Part shown: piece by piece, positions 292 to 63,945 of the stretch
Layout of the letters: each line of letters opens with the position of its first letter
Numbering within the stretch: position 1 is the first letter of the stretch
Assembly (NCBI GenBank): GCA_049287025.1
Contig: JBAQFA010000022.1
Location: forward strand, 30,225-94,224
DNA length: 64,000 nucleotides
Source of the DNA: Candidatus Magasanikiibacteriota bacterium
GTDB taxonomy: Bacteria; Patescibacteriota; Patescibacteriia; Magasanikbacterales; UBA922
Reading direction: 5' to 3'
Program-made: the position numbers and the translations under genes
Notes under the pieces: model-generated
What the model saw: the letters and a program-made list of their open reading frames with translations, nothing else
Told to the model about the DNA's origin: nothing
Database searches by the model: none

Positions 292-454
292 GGCATTCGT
301 GCTCAAGCCGACAAAAAAGGCACATTCAACAACCTACAAGGAGAACAAGGGGGGCCGACACAACAAGGAGGCCCAAAAAAGATTATCATGTTTGGTAGTC
401 TTTTTTGTTTTTATATTCAATATTTTGCTTTACATCTGAGTTTGTGTTAAAATG

Positions 455-545
455 ATCTTTGTTAGGAGCGCTTCCGTTCAATACGGGGGCTGAGAAGTAT
501 CCTTATAACTTGATCTAGGTAATGCTAGCGCAAGGAAACAGAAAC
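455..545 (+). promoter_or_regulatory. TPP (THI-box) riboswitch
   Basis: ggagcgcttccgttcaatacgggggCTGAGAagtatccttataaCTTGATCTAGGTAATGCTAGCGCAAGGAA closely matches the conserved thiM-type aptamer (CUGAGA, ACCUGAUCUGGAUAAUGCCAGCGUAGGGAA); downstream alternative hairpins and T-run; upstream TTGCTT-17-TAAAAT promoter near 427-455. Confidence 0.8.
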
Positions 546-615
546 ACTAATTTTGTTCACTAATCTTCACTAATAGTGTTTGTTGTTTCCTTGTTAGGAA
601 ATTTTTTTGTTTTTA

Positions 616-15375: not shown

Positions 15376-15377
15376 AG

Positions 15378-15457
15378 AATGTAGAATATTGAATATAGAA
15401 TACCATTGATTTTATTTGTATATTCTACATTCCATATTCTAAATTCTATATTCTAAT
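15378..15457. repeat. long AT-rich palindrome gaatgtagaatat...atattctacattc
   Basis: 13-bp perfect IR with about 30-nt loop plus further tagaata/tattcta repeats. Confidence 0.6.
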
Positions 15458-15458
15458 T

Positions 15459-16214
15459 ATGTTAAGTAAAAAAATAATCCAACACATCAACAAACTCGGT
15501 CAGAAAAAAGTTCGTCATGAAGAACATGAATTTATTATTGAAGGTATAAAGGGTATAAGTGAAGCTTTGGAATCTGACGCTAATATTCTTTTGTTGGTAG
15601 TAGAAGGTAATCGGCGCGATGAAAATGAATTTGTTGAATTAATTAAATTAGCAGAAAGACAACAAGTTTCAATAGAATTTTGTGGACGCAAAGAAGTGGA
15701 TGATATAAAAACGACTGATACTTTTCCTGGAGTTTTGGCAATTGTGGAGCAATCTGAGGTTGAGTTGAATGATTTAACAGGTAATATAATTTGCCTTGAT
15801 GGTGTCAAAGACCCGGGTAATCTTGGGACAATTATTCGTACCGCTGATTGGTTTGGTATAAAAAATATAATACTCGCCGAAGATTGTGTCGATCCATACA
15901 ATCCAAAAGTTGTACGCAGTACCATGGGTTCAATTTTTCGAGTAAATATTTTTGAGAGTGAGGGGATAGTGAGAGATTTGAGTTATTTACAAGAAGACGG
16001 ATATAAATTGAATGGTTTGGTGATGAACGGTGTTAATTTGGATAAACTTAAACCTGGGAATAAAGAAATTTATGTTTTAGGCAGTGAATCCCATGGTATC
16101 AGACCAGAGGTTGAAAAAATATTAGATAAAAAGTATACTATTTCTGGTTCTGGCTCGGCTGAATCTTTGAATGTTGCTGTCGCTTGTGGAATTTTATTGT
16201 CTCGTATATCCTGA
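15459..16214 (+). CDS. SpoU/TrmH family RNA 2'-O-methyltransferase
   Basis: C-terminal SPOUT motifs (LGSESHG, NVAVA). Confidence 0.7.
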   Translation: MLSKKIIQHINKLGQKKVRHEEHEFIIEGIKGISEALESDANILLLVVEGNRRDENEFVELIKLAERQQVSIEFCGRKEVDDIKTTDTFPGVLAIVEQSEVELNDLTGNIICLDGVKDPGNLGTIIRTADWFGIKNIILAEDCVDPYNPKVVRSTMGSIFRVNIFESEGIVRDLSYLQEDGYKLNGLVMNGVNLDKLKPGNKEIYVLGSESHGIRPEVEKILDKKYTISGSGSAESLNVAVACGILLSRIS

Positions 16215-16650
16215 ACGAAGTGAAGGATCTTTCGGAGCAATTTTGTGTGGTTTATAATATAAAATTGTAGTATGATCTGGAGGGAAAAAATTTATTATGT
16301 TTATATAATGGCTAGTATAAGTAGAGTTCTATATGTTGGTTATACTGATTCTATTATTAAAAGGGGTTTTCAACATAAGACAGGTTTTTTTGAAAATGCA
16401 TTTACTAAAAAATATAGAATAAATAAACTAGTATATTTTGAAACTAAAAATAGTAAAGAGATGTCTTTAATAAGAGAAAAACAAATAAAAGGATTACTTA
16501 GAAAAAAGAAAATACAAATGATTGAGGAGAGTAATCCAAATTGGGAAGATTTGTATAAAGTTATTATGTCTTTATATCAAGTAAAATAGTAATTTAAAGA
16601 GTAGTCTGGTTGACGTACAGATCCTTCGTCGCTGTGGCTCCTCAGGATTT
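16205..16650. mobile_element. family-A palindromic-element arms flanking a GIY-YIG gene (possible autonomous form)
   Basis: atcctgaacgaagtgaaggatct at 16205 and inverted agatccttcgtcgctgtggctcctcaggat at 16618. Confidence 0.35.
16272..16589 (+). CDS. GIY-YIG nuclease domain protein (about 105 aa)
   Basis: YVYIM..LYVGYT..R...H motif pattern. Confidence 0.65.
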   Translation: MIWREKIYYVYIMASISRVLYVGYTDSIIKRGFQHKTGFFENAFTKKYRINKLVYFETKNSKEMSLIREKQIKGLLRKKKIQMIEESNPNWEDLYKVIMSLYQVK

Positions 16651-16659
16651 TTATATAAT

Positions 16660-18132
16660 ATGATAAGAACAAGATTTGCCCCCAGTCCAACTGGTTATGT
16701 CCATATTGGCAGTCTAAAAATGGCTTTGACTGATTATTTACTTGCTAGACAAAAAGGCGGGCAGTTTATTTTACGCGTAGAAGATACGGATCAAGGAAGA
16801 TTGGTAGAAGGGGCAGTAGAAAATTTACTTAGAACTTTGGATTGGGCAGGAATAAATCCAGATGAAGGAGTAAAATTTGATGTGGATAATAAAGTTGTTC
16901 AAGTGGGGGATAAGGGTCCATATATTCAATCTGAACGTCTAGATATTTATCATAAATATCTAGATGAACTGGTGGAAAAAGACCAAGCTTACTATTGTTT
17001 TTGTTCTAAAGAAAGATTAGATGAAGTGAGAAAAATTCAAGAATTAAATAAACAAGCGACCGGTTATGATGGGCATTGCCGAAGTATTAATTTAGAAGAA
17101 GCAAAAAAAAGAATTGAAGCCGGGGAGAAGGCAGTCGTAAGAATGAAAATGCCAAAAGAGGATGTTACAAAATTTACTGATTTAATTCGTGGTGAAGTTG
17201 AGTTTCAAAATAAATTGATTGATGATCAAGTAATTTTGAAATCTGATGGTTTCCCGACTTATCATTTGGCCGTTGTAGTAGATGATCATCTCATGGAAAT
17301 AACCCATGTTATACGGGGTGAAGAGTGGTTATCTTCTACACCCAAGCATATTGAATTGTATAAGATGTTTGGTTGGGAACCACCTTTATTTGCTCATTTA
17401 CCACTATTATTAAATCCTGATAAATCAAAACTTAGTAAACGCCAGGGTGATGTAGCTGTAGAAGATTATATTAAAAAAGGTTATTTACCAGAAGCGGTTT
17501 TGAATTTTGTGGCTTTTCTTGGTTGGAATCCTGGTGATGAAAGAGAAATATTTAGTTTGGAAGAATTAGTTAAAGAATTTTCTTTGGAAAAGGTTAGTAA
17601 AGCTGGCGCAGTTTTTAATTTGGAAAAACTTGATTGGTATAATAGGGAGTATATGAAGAAAATGGACAGTGCGGAACTGGCTAATAGATGTAAGGTTTTG
17701 TTTGAAGAGAAATATCACATATCACATATCACATATCACATATCACTCGATAAAGTAGTAGGGTTAGAAAAAGAAAGAGCCACGACACTAGTGGAGTTAG
17801 TTGATAATGTTAAATTTATATTTGAAATGGGGGAGTATGATAAAGAATTATTGGTCTGGAAAAAAAGTACAGCTGAGGATGCGAAAAATAAATTACAACA
17901 GCTCTCAGATTTATTGAACACATTTAGTGAACAAGACTGGTCTAAAGAAAATCTAGAAAAGAAAATAGGGGAGTGGGTAGTAGAAAGTGGCTTTGGCATG
18001 GGTGACGTCTTATGGCCAATGCGCATAGCTCTATCAGGCCAAAAGAATTCTCCCGGACCATATGAAATTGCTGATGTATTAGGGAAAGAAGAGTGTTTGT
18101 TACGGCTAAAATTGGCGATTAACAAAATTTAA
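16660..18132 (+). CDS. gltX: glutamyl-tRNA synthetase
   Basis: HIGS and KLSKR class I motifs. Confidence 0.9.
   Translation: MIRTRFAPSPTGYVHIGSLKMALTDYLLARQKGGQFILRVEDTDQGRLVEGAVENLLRTLDWAGINPDEGVKFDVDNKVVQVGDKGPYIQSERLDIYHKYLDELVEKDQAYYCFCSKERLDEVRKIQELNKQATGYDGHCRSINLEEAKKRIEAGEKAVVRMKMPKEDVTKFTDLIRGEVEFQNKLIDDQVILKSDGFPTYHLAVVVDDHLMEITHVIRGEEWLSSTPKHIELYKMFGWEPPLFAHLPLLLNPDKSKLSKRQGDVAVEDYIKKGYLPEAVLNFVAFLGWNPGDEREIFSLEELVKEFSLEKVSKAGAVFNLEKLDWYNREYMKKMDSAELANRCKVLFEEKYHISHITYHISLDKVVGLEKERATTLVELVDNVKFIFEMGEYDKELLVWKKSTAEDAKNKLQQLSDLLNTFSEQDWSKENLEKKIGEWVVESGFGMGDVLWPMRIALSGQKNSPGPYEIADVLGKEECLLRLKLAINKI
17712..17746 (+). repeat. 7-bp tandem repeat (atatcac)x5 inside gltX
   Basis: encodes YHISHITYHIS. 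Confidence 0.9.
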
Positions 18133-26987: not shown

Positions 26988-27776
26988 TTAGTTAATAAAG
27001 TTTTTAATTATTTCTAATAATTTTTCTTTTGTCTGTAAGTGTAGACCGTGTCTGGCATTTTTAATTATTTCTAATTTTGAATTTTTGATTAGTCCATTCA
27101 ATTTGTAAGCATCAGACACTGGTAAATAACCATCCATAGTGCCCCAGACAATTAGAGTTGGTACAGTGATTTTACTGGCTTCCTCTCCCCTATCTTGGCG
27201 AATAATATTTTTAAAAATTTCCCGTTTTATGCCTGAAGTGTCATGGTAATCTTTAGCGCCAATGGCTTTGTGGAAAACATCCTCAGCCCAGAGCGAACCT
27301 TTTTCTATCCACGGAATTTTGAAAATTAGTTTGCCAAATTTTGCAGCAAAATTAAAAATTACTCGTCTAAAAGTTTTTTTTGGTCTAAATACTGCTGGAG
27401 CTACTAAAATTAACTTATCAATCATGTCTGGATATTTACTTGTAAATACAGTGGCGACTTGACCGCCGAAAGAGTGGCCTAACATCACTAATCCTGAGGA
27501 GTCCGCAGACGACGAAGGATCCTGTTGTATTTTCAATTCAATGTTGGATTCATTATCATCGAGATCTTTCGACTTCGTCTCAAGATTGTGTTTTACAAAT
27601 TCAACATAATCTTCTACTCCCCAAACAGTGTCAGGACATGGTTCATTACCAAAACAAGGTAATTCAATAATCTGAATATCAAAATCATTACTGGCTAATT
27701 CAGCAAATTCTTTCCACGTGGCTTTGTTTCCTCCCCAACCTGGCAAAATTATGAGTTGTTGTCTTGAATTATTCAT
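26988..27776 (-). CDS. alpha/beta hydrolase carrying in-frame palindromic-element insertion
   Basis: GHSFGG nucleophile elbow; insertion 27488-27580. Confidence 0.6.
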   Translation of the reverse strand: MNNSRQQLIILPGWGGNKATWKEFAELASNDFDIQIIELPCFGNEPCPDTVWGVEDYVEFVKHNLETKSKDLDDNESNIELKIQQDPSSSADSSGLVMLGHSFGGQVATVFTSKYPDMIDKLILVAPAVFRPKKTFRRVIFNFAAKFGKLIFKIPWIEKGSLWAEDVFHKAIGAKDYHDTSGIKREIFKNIIRQDRGEEASKITVPTLIVWGTMDGYLPVSDAYKLNGLIKNSKLEIIKNARHGLHLQTKEKLLEIIKNFIN

Positions 27777-41571: not shown

Positions 41572-41696
41572 GTTCATCCCGAGTGATCCGCCCAGGGCGG
41601 AGACGAGGGATCTTTCCTATCTAGAATTTTAGTTGAAAAAAAGATTCACCCTTCGGGTATCTTCGACCTCACCCCTATCGGGGATTCGGAATGAAG
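41572..41696. repeat. palindromic intergenic element family A copy
   Basis: arms cgttcatcccgag...cgagggatctttcc / ...ggggattcggaatgaag. Confidence 0.6.
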
Positions 41697-42555: not shown

Positions 42556-42690
42556 ATCCCGAATCCTCCGATGAGGGATCCCTTTCCCATGCATTTAACA
42601 AGGGTATTATATATTAATATTGTAAGAAACTTGAAAAGGGATTTCCTCTTGGAGGATTTTCAACCTCATCCTAAAGAATTCGGAATTCAC
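42556..42690. repeat. palindromic element family A copy; 3' arm encodes helicase C-terminus and stop
   Basis: atcccgaatcctccgatgagggatccctttcc ... gaaaagggatttcctc...gaattcggaattcac; helicase ends EFRIL-TAG inside arm. Confidence 0.6.
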
Positions 42691-45600
42691 AAATTTCCTT
42701 AAAATCACAATACTGACAAACATGTTTATTTGGGGTAGCAATAAAATTATTGGTTTTAATTTGGTTGATTGTTTTAAGAATTTTTTCTTGTAATTTTTCC
42801 AAATCTTTATCTTCACCAATAAAAGAGGTTTTTAAATTATCATTAACATAATAAAAAGTCAGCTGGCCAACTGGACCAATGTTCCGATATTCAGGAAGAG
42901 TTTGAGCCGCAATTTGATAAATCAATAGTTGTTGTTTGTCTTCTGTTGTGAGAGTCTCTTTGGCTTTGCCAGTTTTATAGTCAATAATTTCTAAACTACC
43001 GTCCGCTACCTTGTCTATTCTATCAATTCTACCATGGACAATGTAATCCCCGACTTTAACCTTAAACCAACCCTCTAGAGATACTGGGATAGTCCAATTA
43101 TTTTGTTGGGAAGAATAAAAGATTTTCAAAATTTCTTTGCCTTTGGCAAAATATTTTTCTCGTTGTTCACGGCTATTGTACCAGTCTGGTGCCCAATTTT
43201 TTTCATACATTTGTAATAATTCATCTTGACTGGGTACTTTAATTTCTCCTGTATCTGGTTTTGTTTCTACAGGCAAACCAAACAACGAAGCTTGTTTTAC
43301 ACTATTCAACTCTTGAATTTTGGTATAAAAATCTTGCAGAGTATTATGGATGGTATTACCAAAACTAAAACTCGCACTGCCTTTCATGGGAATTTTTAAA
43401 ACATGGGCAAGTTTGTATTGATAAGGACAGCGTTCATAAGAACTGATTTGAGAAAAGGAAAATTTGTTAGGTGTTTCATAAATTAACTCCTCGCCTACCA
43501 GAGGAGGTTTAGGAGAGGTCATTTTTAAATCCAAAATTTGTTTTTTATCCAGGCCCCCTCCAACTCCCCCTTGTAGGGGGAGAGCTTCAGACAGTTCTGT
43601 TAAAAACCGACTAATTTTCTTTTTGCGTGTTCCACCATAATCCTCAGCGCTAGTTAAAAATAGTTTTTCTTTGGCTCTGGTACATGCTACATAAAATAAA
43701 CGTCTCTCCTCTTCATAATGAAAATCACTATTGGGTAAATTATCTTTGACTAGTTCATCAGGCAATTCCAAATTACCACCCTTTTTTCTAGTTGGGAATC
43801 TTTCTTCTACCAGATTTACCACAAAAACATATTTATATTCCAAACCTTTGGCGCCGTGAACGGTAATAATGTTCACTGAATCTGGTGTGTCTTCGGGTTG
43901 GTAAATTTTTCCACCATCACCCGAATCAATAATATTATTAAAATGTTCGACAAATTCAAGTACCTTACAATCAGGCGTGATTTGTTCAAATGTTTTTATT
44001 AAATCAAGAAGTTGTCTTAGATAATTAATTTGTCGAATAATTTCTCTATCACCATTATTTTCACCATGAGTCAGATAAGTTAGATAATCACTATTTTCTA
44101 AAAAATTATACAACACAGCAGTTGGCCTGTCATAACGCGCTTGCTTCATACCACTGTGAATTGTTTCCAAAATTTTACTAGCAATTTTTTGTCCGCCAGT
44201 AGAAATATCAAACTCTGATCCTCGCTTCAAAACTTCGTAATAACTAATAGATTTTTGTTTGGCTCTGGCGGTAATTTTTTGCATGTCATTTTCATCTATT
44301 GCCCAGGCTGGCATACGTAAAAGTCGGTACATGGCTCTATCATCATAAACATGGGTTAATAATTGAAAAAAAGCCAGGCAATTTAGCACAATTGGCTGTC
44401 TATATAGGCCAGATGAGGCCAAATACTCGTAAGGAATACTAGCCTGCTCTAAAGCCTGAATAAAGGGCTCTACGTGCGAATTAGCCCGGACTAAAATAGC
44501 AAAATCATCCCAAGACATTGATTCCACAGATTTGGATTTGATTTCACTGATTTTTTTTATTACAGCTTGGACTTCATCATCCAAAGTCTGACAATGAATG
44601 TGTTCTATTACGTTATTCTGAGGAGTCGAAGACGACGAAGAATCCCGTTGTTTATTGCTTGAACCACGGGATCCTTCGCTCCGCTCAGGATTATGCAATT
44701 TCTTGTCTATCTTTAATTTTACTTCCAGACGATCAGGATTATTATTTTGAATACTTTTATAACTTAGATCCAAAATTTCTTGAGCAGAACGATAATTTTC
44801 ATTCAAAACAATTTCTTTAGCATTTTTAAAATCTTCTTTAAAATGCATAATCACAGAAACGTTTGATCCGCGGAAACTGTAGATACTTTGATCATCATCC
44901 CCTACTACGGTTAGCTGACAATTCTGAGGCAAAGCCGAAGAATCCCGGTGTTTGTCGCTTGAACTACGGGATCCTTCGCTTTGTTCAGGATTAAGAGCCA
45001 ATAATTTAATTAATTGATACTGTGACCAATTCACATCTTGGAATTCATCTACTAAAATGTAAGTAAATCTTTCTTGCAAGGCTTTGAGAATATTTGGTCG
45101 ATCTTTTAATAATTTGACTGTATAAAAAATTAAATCGCCAAAATCCAAGTACCCGTTGTCCAAAAGTAATTGATTATAAGTATGGTAAGCGTTAGCTAGT
45201 TCGGTTTGGCGATTTTTTTCTTGAATGTTGGCTTCGTCTTTATCCATTTTTACATTTTCTACATATTCCAAATATTCAGTTGTAGAAACTAATTCATCTT
45301 TGGCTTTGGAAAAATGATTCAAAAGCGAATGAATCATAGACATGGGACTACCTAGTGGTCGATAATAATCTAGATTGAAATCATATAAATGTTTTTTTAC
45401 CAAGAGCCAAGCGTCAGTGTCAGTCATAAGTTTGAAACGCGCTGGCAAACCAATTTCCAAACCATATTCTTCAAGAATTTTTTGACAAAAAGCATGAAAA
45501 GTAGAAATTTGTAAATCGGTATAACCAATATCCAAAATATCATCTACTCTTTCTACCATTTCGCCAGCTGCCTTCTCGGTAAAAGTGAGAGCCAAAATAT

Positions 45601-45748
45601 TTTCTGGTTTGGCTAATTTTTGTTCAACTAAATAAGCAATCTTTTGCGTGATTACTGTGGTTTTGCCTGTACCAGCACCCGCTACTATCAATAGTGGTCC
45701 GGATGTGTGTTCTATGGCTTGTTTTTGTTGTTGGTTCAGATTGTACAT
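42671..45748 (-). CDS. UvrD/PcrA-like helicase fused to C-terminal PD-(D/E)XK (Cas4/AddB-type) nuclease
   Basis: AGAGTGKT Walker A; C-terminal Cys cluster C..CQYCDFKEIC; three in-frame repeat insertions. Confidence 0.8.
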   Translation of the reverse strand: MYNLNQQQKQAIEHTSGPLLIVAGAGTGKTTVITQKIAYLVEQKLAKPENILALTFTEKAAGEMVERVDDILDIGYTDLQISTFHAFCQKILEEYGLEIGLPARFKLMTDTDAWLLVKKHLYDFNLDYYRPLGSPMSMIHSLLNHFSKAKDELVSTTEYLEYVENVKMDKDEANIQEKNRQTELANAYHTYNQLLLDNGYLDFGDLIFYTVKLLKDRPNILKALQERFTYILVDEFQDVNWSQYQLIKLLALNPEQSEGSRSSSDKHRDSSALPQNCQLTVVGDDDQSIYSFRGSNVSVIMHFKEDFKNAKEIVLNENYRSAQEILDLSYKSIQNNNPDRLEVKLKIDKKLHNPERSEGSRGSSNKQRDSSSSSTPQNNVIEHIHCQTLDDEVQAVIKKISEIKSKSVESMSWDDFAILVRANSHVEPFIQALEQASIPYEYLASSGLYRQPIVLNCLAFFQLLTHVYDDRAMYRLLRMPAWAIDENDMQKITARAKQKSISYYEVLKRGSEFDISTGGQKIASKILETIHSGMKQARYDRPTAVLYNFLENSDYLTYLTHGENNGDREIIRQINYLRQLLDLIKTFEQITPDCKVLEFVEHFNNIIDSGDGGKIYQPEDTPDSVNIITVHGAKGLEYKYVFVVNLVEERFPTRKKGGNLELPDELVKDNLPNSDFHYEEERRLFYVACTRAKEKLFLTSAEDYGGTRKKKISRFLTELSEALPLQGGVGGGLDKKQILDLKMTSPKPPLVGEELIYETPNKFSFSQISSYERCPYQYKLAHVLKIPMKGSASFSFGNTIHNTLQDFYTKIQELNSVKQASLFGLPVETKPDTGEIKVPSQDELLQMYEKNWAPDWYNSREQREKYFAKGKEILKIFYSSQQNNWTIPVSLEGWFKVKVGDYIVHGRIDRIDKVADGSLEIIDYKTGKAKETLTTEDKQQLLIYQIAAQTLPEYRNIGPVGQLTFYYVNDNLKTSFIGEDKDLEKLQEKILKTINQIKTNNFIATPNKHVCQYCDFKEICEFRIL
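43565..43584. repeat. family B GC palindrome inserted in-frame in helicase
   Basis: ctcccccttgtagggggagag encodes LQGGVGG. Confidence 0.55.
44618..44696. repeat. compact family A element inserted in-frame in helicase
   Basis: tctgaggagtcgaagacgacgaagaatcccg ... gggatccttcgctccgctcaggat. Confidence 0.6.
44921..45000. repeat. second compact family A element in-frame in helicase
   Basis: ttctgaggcaaagccgaagaatcccgg ... gggatccttcgctttgttcaggat. Confidence 0.6.
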
Positions 45749-58013: not shown

Positions 58014-58124
58014 AATCTCGAGCGAAGCGAGAGATCCCTTTTCTTTGGGTTTAACTTCGCTTTATTTTAAAAATTTTTTAATGTTTTGGAAAGGGATTCC
58101 TCATCCTTCGGGATTCGGAATGAA
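58014..58124. repeat. family A palindromic element (intercistronic atpD-atpC)
   Basis: about 90% identical to 62689-62795 copy; abuts atpD TAG. Confidence 0.7.
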
Positions 58125-60589: not shown

Positions 60590-60716
60590 ATTCATTCCGA
60601 GAGTAGCGAGGAATCTTTTTTACCTCTTACTTCTAGAAATAATAAATTAGTAATTTTAAATAATACTTTTTAGGAAAGATTCCTCACCCTCGCTTGAGCT
60701 CGAGTTCGGAATGAAC
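60590..60716. repeat. family A palindromic element (atpA-atpG)
   Basis: cattccgagagtagcgaggaatctttt ... aaagattcctcaccctcgcttgagctcgagttcggaatg; abuts atpA TAG. Confidence 0.7.
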
Positions 60717-62688: not shown

Positions 62689-62795
62689 AATCTCGAGCGA
62701 AGCGAGAGATCCCTTTTCATTGGGTTTAACTTCGCTTTATTTTAAATGTTGTTTAATGTGTTGGAAAGGGATTCCTCACTCCGTTCGGAATGAAC
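62689..62795. repeat. family A palindromic element (atpF-atpH); 3' arm encodes last 7 codons and TGA of atpF
   Basis: ttcggaatgaacg rc encodes IRSFRTE-stop. Confidence 0.7.
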
Positions 62796-63375
62796 GAATT
62801 GTTTCTTCAATCAAAGTGACATCTTTTTTGTCATCCAATTTTTCATTCATTATTTTTTCCACAGCCGCAATAATAAGATTAACAGTTTCTTTCTTAATTT
62901 CAGTCATCATACTTTCTTTTTCTATTTGGATATTTCGTTTGGCCTGATCAACCAACATCTCAATTTCTTTCTTGGCTTTTTCTTTCATGTCAACAGACAA
63001 TTTTTCTGCCTCAGTGTGTGATTTTTCAATTATTTTATTGGCTTCCACTTTCGCTTGATCCAATTTTTCTTGAAATTTCACTTCACTCATTTGCAAATTA
63101 GTTTCCACTGCCTTAGCATTATCAATGCTGTCGTCAATTATTTTTTTACGTTCTTCCATGGTCTTCGTCAATGGTTTTAAAATCAAAAACCAAACAATCG
63201 CACCAACAATGGCAAAGTTTAATAATTGAAAACCAAATAATTGAGCATTGATACCAAGTGAGGCTGCAACACCCTCATTTTTTGGAGCAACGGTAGTGTG
63301 TTCTGCGGTGGTAGCTTCAACATTTGTTTCTTCTACAGCTTCAGAAGAGGCGTAAGCATTTTCTATTAAAAACAT
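62776..63375 (-). CDS. atpF: ATP synthase b subunit
   Basis: N-terminal TM plus long helix. Confidence 0.7.
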   Translation of the reverse strand: MFLIENAYASSEAVEETNVEATTAEHTTVAPKNEGVAASLGINAQLFGFQLLNFAIVGAIVWFLILKPLTKTMEERKKIIDDSIDNAKAVETNLQMSEVKFQEKLDQAKVEANKIIEKSHTEAEKLSVDMKEKAKKEIEMLVDQAKRNIQIEKESMMTEIKKETVNLIIAAVEKIMNEKLDDKKDVTLIEETIRSFRTE

Positions 63376-63805: not shown

Positions 63806-63945
63806 CACACTGTCATCCTGAGCGACAGCGAAGGATCTTTCTTATCTCGGATTTATTTAATTCATAATTTATTGAAATAAATATGCCTGTGGTAAGAAAG
63901 ATTCCTCGTCATCTCTTTCAGGATTTCTCGGAATGACAGAAAAAC
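63806..63945. repeat. family A palindromic element (atpB-atpE)
   Basis: ctgtcatcctgagcgacagcgaaggatctttctta ... taagaaagattcctcgtcatctctttcaggatttctcggaatgacag. Confidence 0.7.

Follow-up and report, generated by a model that had tools for sequence, protein, structure and literature searches.

The open reading frame between the SpoU/TrmH and gltX genes of the window, the 64,000-nucleotide stretch of Candidatus Magasanikiibacteriota DNA analysed here, very probably encodes a member of the Ssn family, with the two inverted hairpin arms that bracket it as its cognate repeats, of the NTS/SRM kind that also goes by the name of CGTC/TGTC-tagged REPs. Ssn proteins, among them SsnA of Neisseria meningitidis, are GIY-YIG nucleases of a single domain. 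They recognise a tagged hairpin repeat (NTS/SRM) when the DNA is single-stranded, cleave immediately 5′ of it and typically have such repeats on their flanks; the three nucleotides upstream govern cleavage, and the C that follows the palindrome governs binding (Chenal et al., Nat Commun 2025; PMC11893778). That report already remarked on the repeat-ssnA-repeat order and on how it recalls REP/RAYT systems. Since both the homology and the arm-gene-arm layout match the published Ssn system, we regard the locus as a new candidate-phyla member of it and not as a new category, and the place of the gene between hairpin repeats would follow from its membership in a family of nucleases that recognise such repeats.

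Architecture of the cassette

The cassette is delimited here by the outward ends of its arms (Table 1). The TGA at 16212–16214, inside the left arm, terminates the 251-aa SpoU_methylase ORF (15459–16214), and the right arm, the inverted partner of the left one, lies 30 nt past the stop of the nuclease ORF; both gene-flanking arms are at gene 3′ ends on the + strand, and gltX starts at 16660. This is the arrangement given in the preliminary description, which had placed a GIY-YIG nuclease gene of about 105 aa between inverted arms, with the 5′ arm overlapping the trmH TGA and its partner just after the ORF.

The arms face outward, with the + arm upstream and the − arm downstream of the gene. 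They are unlike in their inner part, one being short and the other long, and their complementarity is confined to the ends, ATCCTGA/TCAGGAT and GAAGGATC/GATCCTTC. Both are without the GTC tag and have GTAT and AAAA instead. In the left spacer, a TATAAT hexamer read directly from the sequence lies 14 nt ahead of the ATG of the ssn-like gene, and the promoter scan gave no full sigma-70 site there; the terminator scan gave no intrinsic or T-tract terminators, and no tRNA or tmRNA was found.

Table 1. The ssn-like cassette and the further arms found in the window
Feature	Position	Strand	Remarks
Arm-gene-arm cassette	16208–16648	+	441 bp, between SpoU/TrmH CDS and gltX
Left hairpin arm	16208–16230	+	ATCCTGAACGAAGTGAAGGATCT; ATCCT-GA-ACGAAGT-GA-AGGAT-C
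Left spacer	16231–16271	+	Conserved CTTTCGGAG running on from the arm; TATAAT 16253–16258
ssn-like gene, 105-aa single-domain GIY-YIG nuclease (predicted)	16272–16589	+	Pfam PF01541, BLASTP to SsnA
Right hairpin arm, long variant	16619–16648	−	AGATCCTTCGTCGCTGTGGCTCCTCAGGAT; reverse complement ATCCT-GA-GGAGCCACAGCGAC-GA-AGGAT-C
Short paired-arm element (+ then −)	27491–27586		In frame within alpha/beta-hydrolase ORF 26988–27776 (−)
Single arm	41576–41611	+	Intergenic
Single arm	42556–42579	+	Intergenic
Short paired-arm element	44615–44691		Long hairpin, z = −4.0 (+ strand), −4.5 (− strand); in frame in UvrD/PD-(D/E)XK helicase-nuclease ORF
Second short paired-arm element of UvrD/PD-(D/E)XK helicase-nuclease ORF	44921–44991		In frame, z = −5.6
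Short paired-arm element	58015–58121		Intergenic
Short paired-arm element	60594–60712		Intergenic, z = −5.2
Short paired-arm element	62690–62791		Intergenic, overlapping 3′ end of ORF 62776–63375 (−)
Short paired-arm element	63815–63934		Canonical TGTC tag on both arms, z = −4.1

The protein resembles SsnA more closely than UPF0213

The sole Pfam match of the protein is PF01541 (GIY-YIG; E=1.6e-7, residues 8–81), and with 105 aa it lies within the range of single-domain Ssn proteins (roughly 90–150 aa, no accessory domain). Using the homology criterion of PMC11893778 (BLASTP E<1e-10, coverage of at least 75%), the protein is classed as an Ssn homolog: it is 39% identical over 90 residues to an inferred Neisseria gonorrhoeae SsnA (E=2e-21, 67.8 bits), with the alignment spanning residues 2–90 of the 94 in that comparator. 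The comparator was translated by us from an N. gonorrhoeae ORF that carries no annotation (L098 1486–1773, ATT start, 94 codons) and is not N. meningitidis CAX49033.1; it has Y6, Y17 and E64 exactly where the SsnA paper mutated them and canonical NTS repeats around it. In a tblastn search against 7.3 Gb, the N. gonorrhoeae match still reached E=4e-12. In the alignment, Y6, Y17 and E64 of SsnA have Y11, Y21 and E69 as their counterparts in the window protein, and among 38 homologs Y21, R31, H35, E69 and N88 are invariant and Y11 nearly so.

Searching PDB sequences with the family profile led to the UPF0213 structures 1zg2 and 1ywl, and BLASTP to the UPF0213 protein BH0048 gave a match (31%, E=1e-8, 34.7 bits) weaker than that to SsnA. 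A C-terminal NPxWxDL motif of the window family falls outside the stretch aligned with 1zg2 and 1ywl, and NCBIfam has no model matching the window protein. Pfam, the PDB profile search and BLASTP agree on a predicted GIY-YIG fold. The earlier suggestion that the nuclease acts on the hairpins is in line with the characterised Ssn family, to which the identity with the N. gonorrhoeae comparator would link it.

Hairpin arms of a common design

Every arm is itself a hairpin, as in ATCCT-GA-ACGAAGT-GA-AGGAT, with a stem of five Watson-Crick pairs (AT-first), two G.A pairs and two more Watson-Crick pairs. In the commonest form the loop is a GNA of 3 nt (GAA, GCA, GTA or GGA), and inserts in other forms lengthen the stretch from one GA dinucleotide to the other to as much as 30 nt. 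With its tandem G.A pairs and GNA triloop, a GCGAAGC core makes a very stable DNA mini-hairpin. The arms differ by indels and escaped a generic repeat finder, so they were sought by motif. Under a strict definition, which asks for a 5-bp stem starting with AT, GA...GA, the complementary stem half and a final C, the window holds 18 arms; 200 first-order Markov simulations averaged 0.43 and never exceeded 4, and shuffling gave no chance match to the left or right arm sequence (100 shuffles each). The stem covaries among copies (ATCCT/AGGAT, ATTCT/AGAAT, ATTCC/GGAAT, ATCCC/GGGAT).

The 65 distinct arms collected from many phyla have the consensus TGTC-AT...AT-C, with the tag positions conserved to 80% (T), 86% (G), 97% (T) and 89% (C) and the C after the palindrome to 97%; the tag and this C coincide with the positions that determine cleavage and binding, respectively, in PMC11893778. 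The inner pairs, which the search did not demand, are paired in 95% of cases versus 3–5% in slid controls and show the double changes G-C to A-T and C-G to T-A. In the window, the tags of the 18 arms are TGTC (2), GTTC (4), ATTC (1) and others for the rest.

Among the 18 window arms are nine pairs of a + followed by a − arm, three of them in frame inside genes. Eight are short paired-arm elements with loops of 25–85 nt, compared with a single ssn-like gene, and we infer that these elements are non-autonomous derivatives of the same system as the cassette. The in-frame insertions in the UvrD-like helicase-nuclease and the hydrolase extend Rickettsia-type palindromic insertions to a candidate-phyla lineage with reduced genomes.

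Arms accompany the gene across phyla

The preliminary description had proposed checking whether GIY-YIG copies in related genomes are arm-flanked. Using a 10-sequence subset of the 38-sequence homolog alignment, the search covered 80 homologous loci from many phyla, and a + arm was found at most 200 nt upstream in 35, a − arm at most 200 nt downstream in 38 and both arms in 27, at a background of about 0.01 per 200 nt; 33 of the 80 have no arm by the strict definition. Overall, arms are about 40-fold enriched beside the gene. The five candidate-phyla cassettes, the one in the window and four others, occupy five different gene contexts, and in each a + arm precedes the gene and a − arm follows it; the four others lie between purQ and purC, ahead of a gene for an NTP-transferase and, in two cases, between glycosyltransferase genes. 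In all five, the left arm is followed by GGATCTTTCG(A/G)AG, and at one locus of unrelated context (L092) the same TATATCCTGA junction provides the stop codon of the upstream gene. These data give the G.A/GNA hairpin as the partner of a large Ssn branch that includes Acidobacteriota, Chloroflexota, Gemmatimonadota, Zixibacteria, Cyanobacteria and Patescibacteria.

The SRM search pattern of PMC11893778, HGTCWYN(0-2)YYVSBRHN(0-5)WNVSBRGN(0-2)RNCYNB, which by that definition should occur at most 500 bp 5′ and 3′ of the gene, picked up the canonical NTS in a control and at the Neisseria locus, failed to match anywhere in the window and matched at one of the 80 homologous loci. The window arms are therefore not SRMs by the operational definition of its authors, and because the pattern misses the G.A/GNA hairpin, surveys that rely on it undercount the association of repeat and gene.

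A selfish GIY-YIG gene of the homing type, inserted into the loop of a pre-existing paired-arm element and taking no part in the spread of the hairpins, would yield the arm-gene-arm layout as a by-product. The gene does sit exactly at the loop position of paired arms, short paired-arm elements far outnumber it in the window (eight pairs to one), and homing endonucleases are a familiar setting for GIY-YIG domains (PMC1564403); in those enzymes, however, the domain is joined to DNA-binding modules (NUMODs and similar), whereas the window protein is one minimal domain with no second one, and the characterised Ssn homologs do not cut double-stranded DNA (PMC11893778). The left-end GGATCTTTCGRAG is moreover conserved with the gene across cassettes, which indicates that the ends travel with the gene, and we consider such a parasite unlikely.

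The arms could also act as transcribed hairpins, that is, as mRNA stabilisers, attenuators or a ribozyme-like motif to which the nuclease is irrelevant. Arms often come directly after stop codons, paired arms fold well as RNA (z of −4 to −5.6) and the CUGAGGA...GAA of the long variant is superficially like a hammerhead core, but as RNA single arms show no gain in folding over shuffles (z = 0.15 and −0.08), the scan gave no T-tract terminators, and the GCGAAGC-type core is a mini-hairpin very stable as DNA. Neisseria SsnA, furthermore, does not bind RNA (PMC11893778), and no Rfam family was found at gathering score for the arms of the window or in 20 related loci, with nothing credible at E≤10 around the gene, ribozymes included. 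We judge an RNA-level element to be even less probable than a homing parasite. A described RNA family, hammerhead ribozymes included, was a candidate raised by the CUGAGGA...GAA of the long arms and was rejected by the Rfam searches. The only Rfam match at gathering score in the window is a TPP riboswitch.

Coincidence, for which the preliminary description had left room, would mean a housekeeping GIY-YIG gene (UPF0213/YhbQ or Slx1-like) between independent 3′-end hairpins of neighbouring transcription units, and even though small GIY-YIG genes are common, the family profile matches 1zg2 and 1ywl and both arms stand at + strand gene 3′ ends, we regard it as excluded for practical purposes by the roughly 40-fold enrichment at the 80 loci, the flanking of five of five cassettes in different contexts, the higher score of the SsnA match than of the UPF0213 match (67.8 versus 34.7 bits) and a scan that found no terminator-like site.

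Proposed action of the nuclease on its arms

For an Ssn nuclease with cognate arms, a plausible course of events can be drawn up by analogy with the four characterised homologs, from which we infer single-strand cleavage by the window protein. An arm exposed in single-stranded DNA would fold into a hairpin whose AT-first stem of 5 bp continues through two tandem G.A pairs and two further Watson-Crick pairs to a GNA triloop; the nuclease would bind this structure together with the C after it and nick the strand a few nucleotides to its 5′ side, and double-stranded DNA, RNA and the opposite strand would be left uncut. Because the arms face outward, the nicks are predicted to fall just beyond the cassette (441 bp), one past either end and each on a different strand. 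At the single Neisseria locus examined, the nearest repeats face inward, opposite to those of the window. As the gene-flanking arms are without the tag that governs cleavage in Neisseria, the window copy may be bound and not cut, or the specificity of the enzyme may differ. For the host, the system may serve to restrict incoming single-stranded DNA, as in Neisseria, or it may be purely selfish in its spread. Any new pair of such a nuclease and its hairpin is also a potential tool for cutting single-stranded DNA at chosen sites.

Possible mobility of the cassette

The trmH-gltX slot differs among close relatives. In one relative (L089, GltX 85% identical) it is no more than a spacer of 94 nt, and in others (L083/84, GltX 91%; L085/86, 79%) it contains unrelated small ORFs and no arms. 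L083 is like the window up to the last SpoU codons and again from the first gltX codons (ATGATAAGAACAAGATT, window 16660 onwards), and since it holds an unrelated ORF in between, the cassette is bounded only loosely; neither a clean empty-versus-filled junction nor a target-site duplication was found at trmH-gltX, where the relatives carry different DNA. The lack of the cassette from this slot in close relatives supports mobility, without proving it, and suggests that the cassette moves as a unit.

We know of no transposition or strand-transfer activity for Ssn proteins. The support for the view of the cassette as an autonomous mobile form, taken from the preliminary description, is comparative, namely the absence of the cassette from this slot in close relatives. 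It is conceivable, and we offer this tentatively, that the arm-ssn-arm cassette is an autonomous transposable element that uses a minimal GIY-YIG single-strand nuclease as mobilising enzyme and also spreads gene-less paired arms, including those in frame in the UvrD-like helicase. If so, it would represent a prokaryotic class of insertion sequences with a GIY-YIG enzyme and would supply the 'missing transposase' of the CGTC-tagged REPs, dRS3 and some Rickettsia palindromic elements. In PMC11893778, likeness to insertion sequences was put forward as a hypothesis only and movement was left open; the presence or absence of the cassette among related Magasanikibacteria and the cassettes with conserved ends in unrelated contexts bear on this question.

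Comparison with known systems

Our literature search on GIY-YIG in combination with MITE, REP, RAYT, REPIN, COG2827, YhbQ or UPF0213 returned nothing relevant. The closest counterpart is the Ssn system itself (PMC11893778), with which the window shares a single-domain GIY-YIG protein of about 94–105 aa with the catalytic Tyr/Tyr/Glu kept, a gene with oriented copies of a tagged hairpin repeat on either side, the repeat being scattered genome-wide, and, in the cross-phylum arm consensus, the (C/T)GTC 5′ tag, the AT-first stem and the C directly 3′. The two differ in that Neisseria SsnA is biochemically characterised and the window is known from its sequence, in that the window hairpin has tandem G.A pairs with a GNA triloop or a longer inner stem, whereas the Ssn repeat is fully paired (ATTCCCGC/GCGGGAAT), and in the host, here a candidate-phyla bacterium of the Patescibacteria, a group that goes unmentioned in the main text of that report.

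The CGTC-tagged REP superfamily (Di Nocera et al. 2013; PMC3733652) includes Neisseria dRS3 and Rickettsia RPE-4/RPE-6, and no dedicated enzyme was found for it in that study. Its members carry an unpaired 5′ tetranucleotide (CGTC, with the variants TGTC and CCTC); TGTC is the cross-phylum arm consensus, whereas the tag is degenerate in the window, with TGTC in 2 of the 18 arms. They resemble the arms in AT-first stems of about 8–9 positions, a short C-rich tail, a mostly head-to-head dimeric arrangement and in-frame copies within genes, notably DNA repair genes. They differ by loops of 4–5 nt on fully paired stems, where the window arms have a 3-nt GNA loop or longer insert and two G.A mismatches.

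The UPF0213 or YhbQ-type Slx1-like proteins (PDB 1zg2, 1ywl) share the minimal stand-alone GIY-YIG domain of about 95–105 aa and are the closest solved structures by sequence profile. REP/REPIN-RAYT systems, related to IS200/IS605, use a HUH/Y1 transposase and a GTAG tag, unlike the GIY-YIG enzyme and (C/T)GTC tag described here, and are alike in having a single-copy enzyme gene between inverted short hairpin repeats, an ssDNA hairpin as substrate and the repeat dispersed elsewhere as head-to-head pairs.

The cassette and the protein that it encodes

Under the strict definition the window (G+C content 33.7%) contains 18 arms; simulations that preserve its dinucleotide transitions yield 0.43 on average and never more than 4. 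The window arms (n = 18) are arranged as nine pairs, + then −, plus two singles. In eight of the nine pairs the arms lie ~25–85 nt apart, and the short pairs that were fold-tested form long hairpins (z −4 to −5.6); the ninth pair is separated by ~390 nt and encloses the GIY-YIG gene. The preliminary description, which placed one arm over the trmH TGA and its inverted partner after the GIY-YIG ORF, was correct as written. Neither gene-flanking arm sequence occurred in shuffled sequence. The A+T-rich repeats in the spacer that precedes SpoU have no relation to the arms; they could represent an operator or promoter region.

In a 7.3-Gb search of a plasmid collection, the window protein matched a Neisseria gonorrhoeae chromosome filed as a plasmid (E = 4e-12). 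Two such 2.17-Mb records, NZ_CP119142.1 (locus L098 = 1880219-1883476) and NZ_CP119140.1, are evidently chromosomes labelled plasmids. The ORF at L098 is unannotated and has 94 codons if counted from an in-frame ATT, the sole in-frame start yielding this length. It carries Tyr6, Tyr17 and Glu64, the exact residues mutated by Chenal et al. (PMC11893778), and is surrounded by canonical NTS, the hairpin repeats recognised by the nuclease SsnA; judging from these features, we take it to be gonococcal SsnA. Pairwise BLASTP of the window protein against this putative SsnA aligned 90 residues at 39% identity (E = 2e-21), making it a homolog by the criterion of PMC11893778 with that comparator. UPF0213 protein BH0048 (PDB 1zg2), which a profile search ranks closest among solved structures, is farther (31%, E = 1e-8). 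Among 38 homologs, Y21, R31, H35, E69 and N88 are invariant and Y11 nearly so. The window protein very probably belongs to the Ssn family. A homing-type gene that landed in pre-existing arm pairs is disfavoured, as the protein is single-domain, its characterised homologs do not cut double-stranded DNA and the cassette ends are conserved.

Features of the window and of comparison loci from other genomes (L-numbers)
Feature	Locus	Position	Details
TPP riboswitch (RF00059)	window	454-553 (+)	67.8 bits; upstream of ORF 576-1247
Spacer upstream of SpoU	window	15376-15458	A+T-rich TATTCTA / TAGAATA repeats, direct and inverted (GTAGAATATTGAATATAGAATA ... TATATTCTACATTCCATATTCTAAATTCTATATTCTA)
SpoU/TrmH-type methyltransferase ORF	window	15459-16214	251 aa
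Left arm	window	16208-16230	ATCCTGAACGAAGTGAAGGATCT; includes TGA stop of methyltransferase
GIY-YIG ORF	window	16272-16589	105 aa; sole Pfam match, GIY-YIG catalytic domain (E = 1.6e-7)
Right arm	window	16619-16648	AGATCCTTCGTCGCTGTGGCTCCTCAGGAT
gltX	window	start at 16660	
SpoU-gltX slot	window	16215-16659	
SpoU-gltX slot	L083	2098-2500	L083/84: GltX 91% identical; unrelated 128-aa ORF
SpoU-gltX slot	L089	1724-1817	GltX 85%; 94-nt A+T-rich spacer only
SpoU-gltX slot	L085	2093-2500	L085/86: GltX 79%; different 132-aa ORF
Short arm pair between WecG and SpoU	L089	814-956	
Alpha/beta hydrolase ORF	window	26988-27776 (-)	262 aa
In-frame paired-arm insertion in hydrolase	window	27491-27586 (arms)	aa 64-96
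AddA/UvrD-like ORF	window	42671-45748 (-)	1025 aa; UvrD-helicase and PD-(D/E)XK nuclease
In-frame paired-arm element	window	44615-44691	encodes NPEQSEGSRSSSDKHRDSSALPQN (aa 253-276)
In-frame paired-arm element	window	44921-44991	encodes NPERSEGSRGSSNKQRDSSSSSTPQN (aa 353-378)
Putative gonococcal ssnA	L098	1486-1773	
Two paralogous arm-flanked ssn cassettes	L101	1734-3734	Patescibacteria MAG GCA_018830025.1
Tandem GIY-YIG gene copies	L037	2486-3479	Brumimicrobium aurantiacum

Structure of the arm

The arms are themselves small hairpins, in which an AT-first 5-bp stem and its complement enclose a variable centre that has GA on either side, and a C comes next; the stem halves covary among copies (ATCCT/AGGAT, ATTCT/AGAAT, ATTCC/GGAAT, ATCCC/GGGAT, ATCTC/GAGAT). 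Across 65 distinct 21-nt arms, the tag before the stem is TGTC (T 80%, G 86%, T 97%, C 89%), the base after the stem is C in 97%, and GCGAAGC and GCGCAGC predominate in the seven-base centre, whose loop is GNA. The two inner pairs of the centre, whose complementarity is outside the arm search criterion, are paired in 95% of arms compared with 3–5% in slid-partner controls, and double changes from G-C to A-T and from C-G to T-A are seen. The arm is (C/T)GTC, a 9-position stem with two G.A pairs, a GNA triloop and C. Considering that d(GCGAAGC) is a well-known DNA mini-hairpin of unusual stability and that tandem G.A pairs are stable in DNA, the arm fits a single-stranded DNA structure. Under RNA parameters, single arms folded no better than shuffles. 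An element acting at the RNA level is disfavoured by this DNA type of hairpin and by Rfam and terminator searches that gave no match to the arms.

Association of gene and arms across phyla

Using the arm definition applied to the window, we analyzed 80 genomic loci with homologs (44–56% identity) from Acidobacteriota, Chloroflexota, Gemmatimonadota, Zixibacteria, Cyanobacteria, Binatia, Ignavibacteria, Bacteroidota, Pseudomonadota and Patescibacteria. A + arm lies ≤200 nt upstream of the gene in 35/80 loci, a − arm ≤200 nt downstream in 38/80, and arms occur on both sides in 27/80, the background density >500 nt from the gene being ~0.01 per 200 nt per orientation. Considering only the arms nearest to the gene, + upstream with − downstream is the most frequent layout (18 loci), ahead of − then + (8 loci), in which the gene sits between two complete short pairs.

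The nearest relatives of the window protein all come from candidate-phyla genomes, each in a different gene context. The cassette of L092 lies between purQ and purC, that of L099 precedes an NTP-transferase gene, and the single genome of L101 has two between glycosyltransferase genes, with which they alternate, indicating that the ssn family can be multi-copy in candidate-phyla genomes. All four are flanked by a + arm on the upstream side and a − arm on the downstream side, and share GGATCTTTCG(A/G)AG after the left arm; the left end of L092, TATATCCTGA, supplies the preceding gene with its stop codon, just as the left arm does in the window. The arm flanking of related genes that the preliminary description had proposed to check is thus enriched, and the coincidence that it had allowed for is excluded by this enrichment together with flanked cassettes in differing contexts. 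The same enrichment statistics refute a housekeeping UPF0213 gene beside unrelated hairpins.

At L037, the two gene copies are 691 bp apart with the same arm pair after each, which looks like tandem duplication of the whole unit. At many loci (Acidobacteriota L009, L025, L026, L039, L042, L067 and L081) the GIY-YIG reading frame continues through the downstream arm, giving repeat-encoded tails such as ...DSSLRSE in ORFs and database proteins (P0010, P0014, P0016); such tails probably reflect artefacts of annotation or extensions that are tolerated.

Variable occupancy and insertion into genes

Among relatives with conserved WecG-SpoU-GltX synteny (L083/84, L089, L085/86), the SpoU-gltX slot lacks both the arms and the GIY-YIG gene, and the ORFs found there instead have no Pfam match. 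The slot, which holds the ssn cassette in the window, is therefore variable in content among close Magasanikibacteria. In L089 a short arm pair separates WecG from SpoU, an interval without arms in the window, indicating that the short elements are polymorphic in position too. Taken with the four cassettes found in other gene contexts, these site differences indicate that both cassette and short pairs change location between related genomes, whatever the mechanism. Neither a clean empty-versus-filled junction nor a target-site duplication was found at SpoU-gltX in the relatives, and we consider it rather unlikely that the cassette is an autonomous transposon.

Paired arms also interrupt genes in frame, twice in the UvrD-like ORF and once in the hydrolase, directly before the GHSFG nucleophile elbow. 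The former insertions recall Rickettsia palindromic elements and the repair-gene REP insertions of Di Nocera et al. (PMC3733652). The cassette abuts the SpoU/TrmH gene (15459-16589) and provides its stop codon. A 2006 survey recorded a stand-alone-type GIY-YIG domain fused to a TrmH methyltransferase, read as a hint of an RNA role (PMC1564403); such fusions might be a simple outcome of cassette insertion at a gene 3' end.

Proposed mechanism

SsnA is a 94-aa single-domain GIY-YIG protein that binds NTS (CGTCATTCCCGCGMAVGCGGGAATCYRG, the oriented dRS3 form) as single-stranded DNA and cleaves the strand a few nucleotides to the 5' side of the repeat, without acting on dsDNA, RNA or the reverse strand; cleavage is governed by the three bases before the palindrome and binding by the C after it (PMC11893778). 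By extension from characterised homologs, the window protein would bind each arm as a single-stranded DNA hairpin and nick a few bases 5' of it. With outward arms, the predicted nicks would fall just beyond either end of the 441-bp unit, one on each strand, as would be expected were the whole unit excised or copied in replication, repair or DNA uptake; joining by the enzyme itself or by host recombination is conceivable. DNA-uptake genes are present in candidate-phyla bacteria, and by analogy with Neisseria a host role in restricting incoming single strands is possible. In N. meningitidis, SsnA lowers transformation by repeat-bearing DNA (PMC11893778).

Comparison with known systems

The CGTC-tagged REP superfamily (Di Nocera et al. 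2013, PMC3733652), which includes Neisseria dRS3 and Rickettsia RPE-4/RPE-6, has AT-first stems of 8–9 bp, a short C-rich tail, predominantly head-to-head dimers, TGTC as a listed tag variant, some copies within genes, notably repair genes, and 'no dedicated transposase'. The SRM, the hairpin repeat recognised by Ssn nucleases, lies near 71% of homolog genes and on both sides of 42% according to Chenal et al. (2025, PMC11893778), who likened the NTS-ssnA-NTS layout to an insertion sequence or REP/RAYT. The REP/RAYT analogy of the preliminary description, by which the gene may be the autonomous form or encode a nuclease acting on the hairpins, gains support from SsnA homology and the arm-gene-arm architecture.

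The sampled branch keeps three features of the published repeats: tag, AT-first stem and 3' C. However, the SRM pattern, which recovers NTS in the control and the gonococcal locus, matched 0 sites in the window and 1/80 homologous loci; the G.A-containing stem misfits it, and this branch therefore uses a different hairpin body. The window tag is also degenerate, with TGTC on two arms, GTTC on four, and GTAT and AAAA on the gene-flanking arms; other candidate-phyla cassettes have GTTT, GTCA or CTAT. In the window ssn copy, specificity may have changed or cleavage of the arms may have been lost. Orientation differs as well: outward for the window arms, inward for the nearest repeats at the gonococcal locus. 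Our literature search found no follow-up on Ssn mobility or on candidate-phyla genomes. The 2013 and 2025 studies account for the finding and the system is already described; the case examined here adds a variant hairpin and some useful comparative evidence on mobility.
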